Virus genome (UHGV): UHGV-0333071
Direction: 5' to 3' (one strand)
Length of the DNA: 24,121 nt
DNA from: a virus
The translations under genes were made by a program, and so were the position numbers. Under the pieces are notes generated by a model. It had not been told where the DNA came from. It did no database searches and saw nothing but the letters and a program-made list of their open reading frames with translations. This document shows, piece after piece, positions 20,242 to 24,121 of the stretch. Position 1 is the first letter of the stretch, and each line of letters begins with the position of its first letter.

Positions 20242-21246
20242 TTACCACGTTTCCGGGTTATCGGACGGCTCGCAAATATCGCAGTTGCCTCGACAATCAA
20301 ACGACCATCCCTCCTCACATGCGGCGATACCTGGGCAACATTTCGCACAGTGACCACCTTCATAGCGCCCGCAGCCATCACAGACAGGCAGCACGCCGAT
20401 TACTTCACTGGCGGCCCCTCGGGTAATGGCGTTCGCGCTGACAGAACGGTTAACGCTGATTTCCTGGAAGTTGAAAGCGCGATAAATCTCGCGGGTAGCT
20501 GGGGTGTCGCTATTTGACAGGATCACCGGCGAACCAGTAAGGCGGTTAGTATCCAGCAGGGCGGCAGCTAACTGGCGATGCTCTTTAATGCCAAACGGGG
20601 CAGTGTGGTATTGGGTGAAATTAGCGGTGTCGCTTGCTGGCAGGTATGGCGGATCGCAGTAGATAACCGCGTCACTACCAATCATGATTTTTAACGTGCT
20701 CTGGAAATCGCAGCACACGAAAATAGCTTTCGTGTCGTTAGCTTTTTCAGAGAATAAACGGATCTGTTCTTCCGGGAAATAAGGCGGGGTTTTGTGTCGC
20801 CCAAAGGGAACGTTATATCCACCCTGTTGGTTGTAGCGTACTACGCCGTTATATCCGTGACGGTTCAGGTAAAGAAATTGTGCTGCACGAAGAATCTTGC
20901 CCGTGTCCGGTCCGTCCTCAAACACATTGCGCGATGACAGAAGGTCATGGGCGCGAGCGTTGAAATCGTCGCGGATCCACTTATAGCCGTCTTTATCGCC
21001 GTACACTTTAAACAGCGGGCGAGCAGCGTCTATCACCGCATCAGGCCAGCGGGTTATCTGGCGATACAGGTTAATTAAATCTGGGTTGATATCACTCAGG
21101 ATATAACGGCGATATTCAGTATTGAGGAAAACAGAAGCACCGCCGACAAACGGTTCCACCAGGCAATCGGCTTTTGGCAGAATCGGCAGCAAATCAGGCA
21201 TAACGCGGCCTTTACCACCGGGCCATTTAACGAGAGATCGAATCAT
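20242..21246 (-). CDS. dam: DNA adenine methyltransferase (Dam family, GATC-type) with Cys-rich C-terminal extension
   Basis: Near-colinear similarity to E. coli Dam as recalled (..KWPGGKG.., ..CLVEPFVGGASVFLNT.., ..FLYLNRHGYNGVVRYN.., ..VIYCDPPY..). Extra C-terminal tail of about 50 aa with ten cysteines. Confidence 0.85.
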   Translation of the reverse strand: MIRSLVKWPGGKGRVMPDLLPILPKADCLVEPFVGGASVFLNTEYRRYILSDINPDLINLYRQITRWPDAVIDAARPLFKVYGDKDGYKWIRDDFNARAHDLLSSRNVFEDGPDTGKILRAAQFLYLNRHGYNGVVRYNQQGGYNVPFGRHKTPPYFPEEQIRLFSEKANDTKAIFVCCDFQSTLKIMIGSDAVIYCDPPYLPASDTANFTQYHTAPFGIKEHRQLAAALLDTNRLTGSPVILSNSDTPATREIYRAFNFQEISVNRSVSANAITRGAASEVIGVLPVCDGCGRYEGGHCAKCCPGIAACEEGWSFDCRGNCDICEPSDNPETW

Positions 21247-21943: not shown

Positions 21944-22081
21944 GTTGATCTCCGTCATATTCAAAAAGTGCCGGGATACAACCCCACGCCCGGCGCGTGT
22001 TTCCTGTGATAACATCGCTATGCCTGTGAAACTTTGAGAGGTGAATCAGGCATAACAATCACCAACACAGAAGGAGTTGTA

Positions 22082-22543
22082 ATGAAATTCAATGTTTTTT
22101 TAAAAGTAAACCATGGCGCACACTGGGTTCTCTCCTCCGGCTCACCTATTTTTGAAAGCACTTTATTTGAAACACGGCCAGAGGCTATTAATGACCTTGA
22201 AAAATTTGTAACCGGCATGGAATCACCAACATTTATTGACAATGACAATAGCGATAGCCCCTCCCCAGCAACAGTTATTTTCAAACAGATTGATTCCCGC
22301 TGGCATTGGACATTATTTTTTTCATTCAATGGAGTACGATCTAAAATCGCCGAAAGCTCAGAAAAAGGCTTTGACTCATTAGAACTTGCCAAACAAAAAG
22401 CCAAGATTTTCTGTAATTCCATTGTCGACGCTCCAATTCTTGACCAGTTTGATATTGCCATTCCTGGCCTAGGCTTCACAAAATCCTTTGAACATGCACA
22501 TAACATCGGCGACATTCACCCATCTAGTAAATGGGTAAAGTAA
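22082..22543 (+). CDS. YegP/DUF1508-like tandem-domain protein (unknown function)
   Basis: Only plus-strand gene in the early region; AAGGAG RBS 6 nt before the ATG at 22082; AT-rich. Two roughly 50-aa segments (KFNVFLKVNHGAHWVLSSGSPIFESTLFETRPEAINDLEKF and WHWTLFFSFNGVRSKIAESSEKGFDSLELAKQKAKIF) follow the YegP repeat pattern as recalled. Confidence 0.45.
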   Translation: MKFNVFLKVNHGAHWVLSSGSPIFESTLFETRPEAINDLEKFVTGMESPTFIDNDNSDSPSPATVIFKQIDSRWHWTLFFSFNGVRSKIAESSEKGFDSLELAKQKAKIFCNSIVDAPILDQFDIAIPGLGFTKSFEHAHNIGDIHPSSKWVK

Positions 22544-22547
22544 GCAG

Positions 22548-22895
22548 TCATTGTGGCGTTACAATTTTTCTTGTGCGGGGTGGAACATCTCGCACGGTTT
22601 CATCATCAACAATCAATTCATAAATTTGAATGCTGTTATCAGATTTTGATATTTCATCAAATACCTGAAAAAGAAAACTCATGAATTGCTCATAAGTAAC
22701 AGTAGGATCAATAAACCCTCCCGCAACACATAACAAAGGTGTTAGTCCTGAGTTATTCACTACTGAGATACTATTCAACTGATCAAGACGAAAAAAATAA
22801 TTACCGGCCGGTGTTCTTTTATCATTTATATGAATAAACACATTTGATAATGCTATATGACTATCTGAGAGTTTAAAGATTTTTGCCGTGTCCAT
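22548..22895 (-). CDS. Hypothetical protein (115 aa), AT-rich cargo gene downstream of cox
   Basis: A long ORF in AT-rich DNA is unlikely by chance. Sits 22 nt downstream of the cox stop; tail-to-tail with the YegP-like gene with a 4-nt gap. RBS is weak. Confidence 0.45.
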   Translation of the reverse strand: MDTAKIFKLSDSHIALSNVFIHINDKRTPAGNYFFRLDQLNSISVVNNSGLTPLLCVAGGFIDPTVTYEQFMSFLFQVFDEISKSDNSIQIYELIVDDETVRDVPPRTRKIVTPQ

Positions 22896-22917
22896 TTTAT
22901 TCAGCCCTGTAAGTTGC

Positions 22918-23193
22918 TTATGATGGATTGCCCAGACCCAACCACATTAACCACCCTTCCCTAATTTCCTTCGGGCGGCTCTCATACGCCATTTTCATTC
23001 CGTTGTTCCAGGCTGGGAGGTAGACCCAGTACTCACCTGCCCGCCCGGAAGTTGATTGCGGATCGGTCATCTCAACTACGGGTAGCTTTCCTTTTTCAAT
23101 CATTCCCCTTACTGCTGCCGGTGTTTTGCCGATCAGTTTTGCAAACTCCTGGTACGGGACAGCATCACTAATACTGACAACTTGTTTGCTCAT
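22918..23193 (-). CDS. cox: Cox (excisionase / repressor of the lysogenic promoter)
   Basis: 91 aa, near-identical along its length to P2 Cox as recalled (..AVPYQEFAKLIGK..GKLPVVEMTDPQS..GRAGEYWVYLPAWNNG..ESRPKEIREGWLMWLGLG..). Confidence 0.9.
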   Translation of the reverse strand: MSKQVVSISDAVPYQEFAKLIGKTPAAVRGMIEKGKLPVVEMTDPQSTSGRAGEYWVYLPAWNNGMKMAYESRPKEIREGWLMWLGLGNPS

Positions 23194-23316
23194 CTGCTAA
23201 CCTCGTATCTAGATCTAACCAATGGGTTTCAAAGTTCTTTAATGGGCTTTGATGCACATTGACAACATCTAAAACCACATTAGAGAGTTTCGATAATATT
23301 AGAGGATCTTGATAAC
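23194..23316. promoter_or_regulatory. C/cox switch region: candidate C-operator direct repeats and convergent promoters
   Basis: Direct repeats AATGGGTTTCAAAG (23221-23234) and AATGGGCTTTGATG (23241-23254), 20 bp apart, bracket a candidate early-promoter -10 on the minus strand (about 23236-23241). A perfect TTGACA sits on the plus strand at 23259-23264, and GATAAT at 23292-23297. Confidence 0.45.
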
Positions 23317-23616
23317 ATGTCAACGCCCATAAGCGAAAAACTAGCGTTAGTTCGTGAGTCAGAGCGACTAAACCGGAAGCAATTCGCTGAAATAACAGGA
23401 GTTCCTTACAGTTCTCTAACTTATTATGAGAGCGGAAGAACTACGCCACCCACTGACGTAACGATGAAAATTCTCCAGCACCCCAGATTTAGCAAATACA
23501 CGTTGTGGTTTATGACAGATCAGGTTGCTCCCGAAGCCGGTCAGATAGCACCGGCCCTCGCACACTTTGGGCAAGATGTAACAACATCGCAGCACTCAGA
23601 CCAAAAGATTGGTTAA
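23317..23616 (+). CDS. C: Immunity repressor C
   Basis: 99 aa, closely matching P2 C as recalled (MS..ISEK..L.R.SE.L.R.Q.A..TGVPY..L.YYESGR.TPPTDV.M.ILQ.P.F.KYTLWFMT.Q.APE.GQIAPALAHFGQ..). Confidence 0.9.
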   Translation: MSTPISEKLALVRESERLNRKQFAEITGVPYSSLTYYESGRTTPPTDVTMKILQHPRFSKYTLWFMTDQVAPEAGQIAPALAHFGQDVTTSQHSDQKIG

Positions 23617-23761
23617 CCATTCACCAGGCGCATCTTTATTACAAAATTTGTTTACTTGTTGCCAAATACAACAAGCACAACAAGTTTGTGAAATCTAAGC
23701 GCAAGGGAAAATTAACAGCAGCAAAGAAAACGCAACCTAGCACCATTCATTTGGGGGTCTT

Positions 23762-24121
23762 ATGACAATTAAGAAACTCGATGATGGTCGATATGAAGTG
23801 GACGTCAGACCTGCAGGGCGCAACGGAAAGCGCATCCGCAGGAAGTTCGATAAGAAAAGTGAAGCTATCGCTTTTGAAAAACATACGCAGTACAACCATC
23901 ACAACAAAGATTGGTTGGCTAAACCGACAGATAAGCGGCATCTGTCTGAATTAACAAAAGTCTGGTGGGATCTGAAAGGTAAGCATGAAGAACACGGAAA
24001 ATCCAATTTGGGTAAGATTGAAATCTTTACCCGGATCACTGATGACCCTTGCGCGTTCCAGATAACCAAAGCGCTTATTAGCCAGTACAGCATGACTCGC
24101 AGAGGGCAAGGCATAAAACCG
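23762..24121 (+). CDS. int: Integrase (tyrosine recombinase), N-terminal 120 aa; 3' end beyond the window
   Basis: Translation from ATG 23762 gives MTIKKLDDGRYEVDVRPAGRNGKRIRRKFDKKSEAIAFEKHTQYNHHNKDWLAKPTDKR..., matching the P2 Int N-terminus as recalled. Absent from the ORF track because it has no stop in the window. Confidence 0.9.
   Translation, partial: MTIKKLDDGRYEVDVRPAGRNGKRIRRKFDKKSEAIAFEKHTQYNHHNKDWLAKPTDKRHLSELTKVWWDLKGKHEEHGKSNLGKIEIFTRITDDPCAFQITKALISQYSMTRRGQGIKP

Follow-up and report, generated by a model that had tools for sequence, protein, structure and literature searches.

The cox-C region and its relatives

The window (the whole 24,121 bp stretch of DNA analysed here) includes two divergently oriented genes, cox and C, that are separated by a spacer of 123 bp in the list of open reading frames, and an integrase gene lies downstream of C. 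These genes and the sites proposed within and beside the spacer are listed in Table 1. The cox product matches the Pfam family Phage_Cox (PF10743, E = 5e-43) and the structure entry for P2 Cox (4LHF, E = 8e-50), and the C product matches the P2 C structure entries 2XCJ and 2L49 over residues 1-99 (E = 1e-44) as well as HTH_3. A small helix-turn-helix C protein and a divergent Cox encoded first in the opposing operon, which are the sequence-level hallmarks of the P2 C/Cox family, are both found. As judged from its sequence, the 123 bp region is a P2-type lysis-lysogeny switch with a P2-like layout and an ordinary member of a known family, and in this respect the first-pass annotation, which had recognized such a switch, was correct.

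Table 1. Coordinates of the genes and of the predicted or candidate sites in the cox-C region (-, strand of cox; +, strand of C)
Feature	Sequence	Position	Strand	Remarks
cox		22918..23193	-	91 aa; predicted repressor of Pc and excision directionality factor; open reading frame, Pfam and structure match
Palindromic element	GGTTAGATCTAGAT	23207..23220	-	Shortly upstream of the ribosome-binding site of cox (GAGG, 23201-23204); contains GATC
Cox-box-like site C	TTGAAACCC	23224..23232	-	6/8 consensus positions (7/8 in the 23231 register); inside the first AATGGG repeat
Cox-box-like site B	TTAAAGAAC	23234..23242	-	7/8 consensus positions; between the two repeats; exactly 10 bp from A and C
Candidate Pc (B), -10	TTTAAT	23238..23243	+	P2-homologous position; 79 nt before the C ATG (77 nt for P2 Pc TATAAT)
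Cox-box-like site A	TCAAAGCCC	23244..23252	-	7/8 consensus positions; inside the second AATGGG repeat
Third unit, degenerate	GTGGTTTTAGATGTTGTCAAT	23258..23278	-	Core lost, TTGTC for CTCTA
Candidate Pc (A)	TTGACA-18-GAGAGT	23259..23288	+	TTGACA 23259-23264, 18 bp, GAGAGT 23283-23288
Proposed operator unit 2	ATTATCGAAACTCTCTAAT	23279..23297	-	Core TAGAG 23281-23285 (C strand); covers Pe from the end of its -10 to about +10
Pe, -10	TAATAT	23296..23301	-	16 bp after the -35; start probably near 23289
Proposed operator unit 1	GTTATCAAGATCCTCTAAT	23298..23316	-	Core CTCTA (cox strand), TAGAG 23300-23304 (C strand)
C		23317..23616	+	99-aa immunity repressor, helix-turn-helix; open reading frame and structure match
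Pe, -35	TTGACA	23318..23323	-	Overlaps the C start codon; same place as the annotated Pe -35 of P2

The C protein had also been described as near-P2, which overstates the likeness, as it is identical to P2 C at 70 of 99 residues (70.7 %) and at only 33 of 50 in the DNA-binding N-terminal half. Its C-terminal stretch TLWFMTDQVAPEAGQIAPALAHFGQDVTTSQHSDQKIG is identical to that of the C protein of locus L034, in which the N-terminal DNA-binding half is of the P2 type. Helix 3, which was defined as the recognition helix of C by alanine scanning (PMC2995052), reads YSSLTYYES in the window and YGTLSYYES in P2, the differences falling at residues 32, 33 and 35. Comparison of the C gene with those of L034 and L116 indicates that it is a mosaic, with a predicted recombination event inside C between the parts for DNA binding and for the C-terminus.

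Downstream of cox lie a 115-aa open reading frame on the cox strand (22548-22895) and a 169-aa open reading frame on the + strand (22034-22543), and the homologues of both in near-identical prophages have no Pfam match on record. The 169-aa open reading frame looks like an inserted accessory gene. The interval downstream of cox is also where an IS3-family element sits in several E. coli relatives (L013, L148 and L150). An Rfam scan of positions 22000-24121 returned one chance microRNA match only, at 23 bits against a threshold of 80.

For comparison, 71 distinct C-cox spacers were gathered from genomes, metagenomes and viral contigs. Of these, 49 are accompanied by a C protein whose helix 3 is identical or nearly identical to that of the window (class A) and 22 belong to other classes, while exactly the helix 3 of the window is found with 43 distinct spacers; as related spacers share ancestry, counts of conservation in this sample do not represent independent events. 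The exact C protein of the window is present in 8,970 blocks of the assembly collection and in 19 of 5,426 complete genomes, and the spacer is nearly invariant among carriers of an identical C. A close DNA search of the phage genome collection yielded no more than the 3' part of C, found in Klebsiella phages, and none of the complete phages in that collection has a C of the window's class, the best C match being 74.7 %.

The early promoter and the AATGGG repeats

Between cox and C, two direct repeats 20 bp apart had been noticed in the first pass, and both 14-mers are present (AATGGGTTTCAAAG, 23221-23234, and AATGGGCTTTGATG, 23241-23254; 20 bp from start to start), as are the hexamers TTGACA on the C strand (23259-23264) and TTGTCA on the cox strand (23265..23260). 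These AATGGG repeats had been interpreted as the operator of C, bracketing the -10 of the early promoter (Pe), by analogy with the geometry described for P2, which is itself correctly stated. In the annotated P2 sequence, the half-sites O1 (25894-25901) and O2 (25916-25923), both GTTTAGAT and 22 bp apart, flank the Pe -10 (25907-25912), the Pe -35 (25884-25889) overlaps the C start codon (25888-25890), and all of these lie within about 35 bp of C. The -10 and -35 of Pc, the promoter for C, are approximately 40-20 bp from the cox start codon. When the window is aligned with annotated P2, however, the AATGGG repeats fall on the cox/Pc side of the spacer, where P2 has its Cox boxes, and Pe and the likely operator are found about 45-95 bp away beside C.

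The promoter that had been placed between the repeats, TTGTCA-18-TAAAGA, scores 4.97 with a position-weight matrix, which is below the median of the best scores in shuffled sequences (9.06; 95th percentile 12.2), whereas TTGACA-16-TAATAT beside C scores 13.0 and agrees with 10 of 12 consensus positions in a consensus scan. There the cox strand reads GTTGACATG..., with TTGACA (23323..23318) over the C start codon. The same -35 at the start of C is kept in 70 of the 71 related spacers, which represent several immunity classes including that of P2, and among class relatives the -10 is conserved as TAATAT or TAATAA. Given the homologous position in P2, the score and the conservation of the -35, Pe is placed adjoining C and not between the AATGGG repeats, and it would fire toward cox from a -35 that overlies the C start codon.

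The repeats themselves match at 10 of 14 positions, but a direct repeat at least this good with a spacing of 10-40 bp occurs in 45 % of shuffled spacers and an exact pair of 6-mers in 53 %, and the bare pair is hence no better than chance. It acquires significance only as part of an array of three boxes, phased at 10 bp, that matches the cox-box consensus of P2. Conservation of the repeats with the same C had been expected of an operator. They are indeed invariant in prophages with an identical C, but the whole spacer is too, and only 4 of the 43 same-helix spacers contain two AATGGG copies; thus, the repeat does not track the specificity of C. In addition, AAAGCCCATT is present at two loci of a different class, L119 and L121. 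That the repeats exist and have a 20 bp spacing, and that operators of the C family are direct repeats of variable spacing and position (PMC1904268), can be cited in favour of the view that C binds here around an early-promoter -10. Against this stand, together with the frequency of such pairs in shuffled spacers, their scarcity among same-helix spacers and their presence in other immunity classes, the low score of the intervening promoter, the near-consensus Pe at the P2-homologous place and the fit of the motif to the consensus and phasing of Cox boxes, and we find this view barely credible.

The cox-box consensus of P2 is TTAAA(G/C)NC(A/C), with boxes spaced 10-11 bp and overlapping Pc; Cox protects at least 70 bp over Pc, and P2 sites have at least six boxes each (PMC3936717). 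Both strands of the 24,121 bp window were scanned for arrays of at least three matches of 6/8 or better, phased at 10-11 bp, and a single array was recovered, with box starts at 23252, 23242 and 23232. After shuffling, a window holds a mean of 0.3 arrays, and one is present in 0.3 % of spacers. The array found here, read along the cox strand, is TCAAAGCCC-A-TTAAAGAAC-T-TTGAAACCC-ATT, such that the two AATGGG repeats correspond to boxes 1 and 3 of a triplet, and it is located where P2 has the mapped boxes TAAAAGGCA/TATAAGACA/TTAAACGCA, though three clear boxes can be discerned in the window as against at least six per site in P2. The sequence GAAACCCATT is conserved in most class-A spacers, and a 10 bp periodicity of CATT is also seen in P2 and in spacers of other classes that have a near-identical Cox. 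With the strict P2 consensus, the full three-box array is found in only 14 of the 43 same-helix spacers because box 1 is variable. The Cox proteins of the window and of P2 differ by T25P, R30G and D33E, and residues 25 and 33 have been proposed to set DNA specificity (PMC3936717); hence, the P2 consensus can be applied to this Cox only approximately. In L013, a prophage of E. coli in which the switch is 100 % identical, the segment between the int stop codon and the att core is homologous to the Cox-protected segment of P2, and this att arm carries TGAAAGCCC and TGAAAGCCA.

The AATGGG/CATT array could instead chiefly reflect the architecture of Pc, or be a site for a host factor or for DNA bending, and not consist of specific Cox sites, with the operator of C still formed by the TAGAG units considered below. 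The -10 of P2 Pc does lie inside the homologous array, TTTAAT (23238-23243) stands at that position in the window, and A/T-rich sequence phased at 10 bp also gives intrinsic bending. However, TTTAAT (TCTAAT in relatives) does not have the near-invariant A at position 2 of the -10 hexamer, the 24 kb contain no second array matching the Cox consensus, which was derived independently, and homologous boxes are present in the att arm, a place in which a promoter would not be expected; we regard this explanation as unlikely. Most probably, the AATGGG repeats are bound by the opposing regulator, Cox. Oligomers of Cox would occupy the three 10 bp-phased boxes and repress Pc, as P2 Cox oligomers do on such a pattern; in P2, Cox also occupies similar sites of the att arm when the prophage is excised.

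A possible IHF site picked out by eye at CATCAAAGCCCATT was rejected, as it does not fit WATCAANNNNTTR. L013 (4371-4480) and other relatives of the window adjoin yegR/yegS with the P2 att core CCCTTACACGGGCTTATTTTTTA, and several of them are in O103:H2, O45:H2 or O111:H2 strains. E. coli E22, which is referred to in the final section, we take to be an O103:H2 strain. Two further loci, L153 and L157, have the same C and int but carry a gene for a 758-aa Clp-type ATPase downstream of int, which suggests a second context of integration.

The proposed operator of C and the candidates for Pc

The strongest direct repeat in the spacer, absent from the first-pass annotation, is a 19 bp pair beside C (23279-23316; units 1 and 2 in Table 1). 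The two units are arranged head to tail and are identical at 14 of 19 positions, a level reached in 1.2 % of shuffles, and between them they span Pe from immediately downstream of the -35 as far as about +10. In P2, the C footprint reaches approximately +16 (PMC1904263). Unit 1 lies between the -35 and the -10 of Pe, like O1 of P2, and is nearly invariant across the 49 class spacers, an invariance that has other possible causes because the C ribosome-binding site (GAGGA, 23302-23306) and the Pe spacer are both contained within the unit. Among class relatives, unit 2 retains the core YTCTA together with the flanking TC(R)..AT, and the linkers are variable. Taken together, the 49 class-A spacers reveal three units with the consensus TTNTCRANATYCTCTAA, separated by variable linkers and with core-to-core distances of 19-21 bp and then 20 bp, and in all 43 same-helix spacers two or more YTCTA cores lie no farther than 60 nt from C. 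In the third unit the relatives read ...TTCTCTAA, compared with ...GTTGTCAA in the window (23258-23278). Position 3 of this core is C in 45 of the 49 class spacers, and the complement of the degenerate core found in the window is the TTGACA at 23259-23264.

Two loci with a helix 3 of the P2 type, L034 and L116, served as a positive control. Both have GTTTAGAT/ATTTAGAT 22 bp apart around the -10, and the cox-proximal half of their spacers has diverged from P2 despite the retention of these half-sites. A natural variant is provided by L005, L029, L084 and L109 (spacers upstream of C at 701 or 1501), in which the DNA-binding half of C differs essentially by S32T and CTTTA replaces CTCTA in units 1 and 3. 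This covariation is suggestive, though it probably reflects a single evolutionary event. In the same four loci the middle unit is degenerate, leaving two cores approximately 41 bp apart.

The immunity repressor C therefore has a candidate operator that is distinct from the AATGGG repeats, and most likely binds the two 19 bp units at 23298-23316 and 23279-23297. As in P2, one C dimer would be bound per unit, and C on units 1 and 2 would block RNA polymerase at Pe and turn off cox and the early operon. For the joint model, in which the TAGAG units at Pe are the C operator and the AATGGG repeats are Cox-binding sites, we estimate a probability of about 0.7 from the sequence comparisons.

The GTTTAGAT pair of P2 is absent around the Pe -10 of the window; only TTTTAGAT (23267-23274) and GGTTAGAT (23213-23220) were found, 54 bp apart and downstream of Pe. 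It could be argued that the TAGAG repeats are not operators, that unit 1 is kept only as a ribosome-binding site and Pe spacer, and that C binds elsewhere, for example at these P2-like TTAGAT motifs. GAGGA in unit 1 is the likely C ribosome-binding site, the recognition helix of C is similar to that of P2, and the palindromic element GGTTAGATCTAGAT, which includes the second motif, matches P2 O2 and its flank (GTTTAGATGTAGAT) at 12 of 14 positions and is class-specific: TAGATCTAGAT is found in 47 of the 49 class-A spacers and in none of the 22 spacers of other classes, though Cox varies little from class to class. However, units 2 and 3 have no ribosome-binding role, and yet the core and the 20 bp register are kept in 43 of 43 spacers. 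Furthermore, the TTTTAGAT copy (23267-23274) is restricted to the lineage of the window, and the two TTAGAT motifs, at 54 bp apart, flank no promoter element, unlike every mapped C operator. We consider it very unlikely that C binds at these motifs in place of the TAGAG units. For GGTTAGATCTAGAT, a distal C site and an upstream element of Pc are both possibilities; as a fourth operator unit it was rejected, since its flank departs from the unit consensus and it lies 52 bp out of register.

Some further features of the region were noted. A GATC at 23305-23308 falls within proposed operator unit 1, and 43 of the 49 class spacers retain it. Positions 20242-21246 of this prophage encode a D12-class (Dam-like) adenine methyltransferase, the homologue of which in near-identical prophages is assigned to PF02086. 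In Xenorhabdus santafensis (L007, C at 1501), the C protein is 82 % identical to that of the window and both ATCTAGATCTAG and ATTAAAGGATCTAGATAA are retained in the spacer; upstream of this C, no homologue of Cox was found.

Two candidates for Pc can be put forward. Candidate A is the best promoter-like site on the C strand, with a score of 10.0 that lies between the median and the 95th percentile of shuffles, and if it is used Pe and Pc would overlap almost completely. It includes the TTGACA at 23259-23264, which had been assigned in the first pass to convergent, mutually interfering promoters. The convergent logic probably holds and the hexamer may serve as a Pc -35, but it is confined to the lineage of the window and is replaced by CTGACA in L071, which has an identical C. 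Candidate B is at the P2-homologous position, and with it the two transcripts would overlap by about 40 nt, much as in P2; the starts of P2 Pe and Pc were mapped by primer extension and those transcripts overlap by approximately 35 nt (PMC1904263). Promoter scoring of the 49 related spacers revealed no consistent position for Pc. The commonest best site was TTTAGA-18-GAGAAT (6.4), and TAGAGA-16-GAGAAT (5.8) shares the same -10.

These observations can be combined into a broader proposal, made up of inverted operator units, a relocated Pc that overlaps Pe and changed expression of C in the window lineage, which as a whole we hold to be doubtful. The operator would consist of head-to-tail units of about 20 bp, mostly three in number, with a TTAGA-type core on the opposite strand to the TTTAGAT of P2, so that the half-sites are inverted relative to Pe. 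TAGAGA of the third unit and GAGAAT of the second may double as the -35 and -10 of the relocated Pc, and C would then directly autoregulate its own promoter. In the window lineage, loss of the third core and gain of TTGACA may uncouple or strengthen the expression of C.

Comparison with P2 and other known switches

The operator predicted here, with units 1 and 2 at Pe bound by C, belongs to a system that is itself ordinary. Few helix-turn-helix families recognize direct repeats, and the P2-family repressors are one of them. By 2007, no more than three C proteins had a mapped operator, with half-site spacings of 22, 26 and 34 bp (PMC1904268), and the prediction is therefore new in detail, namely in the 19 bp spacing, the TAGAG core and the apparent inversion with respect to the TTTAGAT of P2. 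It supplies a putative operator for a very common P2-like immunity class of E. coli, and an error at the level of annotation, as to which repeats belong to which regulator, is corrected. A further class, with a 19 bp spacing, a possibly inverted core and a natural covariation of S32T with CTCTA-to-CTTTA, would add a useful data point on the evolution of immunity specificity; no concept is changed.

The likeness to P2 extends to the gene order (int-C/cox), to a spacer of similar length (123 bp here and 114 bp in P2), to the Pe -35 TTGACA over the C start codon with direct-repeat units over the Pe -10, and to the 10 bp-phased Cox-box-like sites on the cox side, and the att core is the same, with a homologous Cox-site region in the att arm. 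The differences are concentrated in the operator. The half-site core is TAGAG on the C strand, whereas GTTTAGAT is on the cox strand in P2, and hence the best match to the P2 site is in inverted orientation. The spacing is 19 bp instead of 22 bp, most class members have three units and not two, and the Pc -10 TATAAT of P2 is TTTAAT here. The published criterion for a shared immunity class is a C identity of at least 95 % (PMC3448106), and at 70.7 % identity the C of the window falls well outside immunity class I of P2. Together with the absence of a GTTTAGAT pair around the -10, this makes it likely that the immunity is distinct from that of P2, as had been surmised in the first pass from other repeats.

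The C proteins of WPhi and P2 Hy dis are likewise small and homologous, and each binds a pair of direct repeats close to Pe; the sequence, length, spacing and position of C operators differ between immunity classes (PMC1904268). Published descriptions set both of these phages apart from the window, with half-site spacings of 34 and 26 bp compared with 19 bp here. In one of them the half-sites flank the -35 (PMC1904268 and PMC2995052 disagree on which phage this is), whereas the units proposed here overlap the -10 and the start. Phage 186 also has lytic and lysogenic promoters that are face to face, and its excisionase-type regulator Apl binds direct repeats one helical turn apart between them (PMC7498355). 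It differs in its CI repressor, which is larger and unrelated, and in using CII for establishment, whereas the window has a small P2-type C and no cII. Likened by description, the switch of the window may represent the tentative immunity class VIII, that of prophage PhiECO4 of E. coli E22 (PMC3448106). The row for PhiECO4 in the published table has 'P2' in a column that we read as the integration site (Nilsson et al. 2011, PMC3448106).
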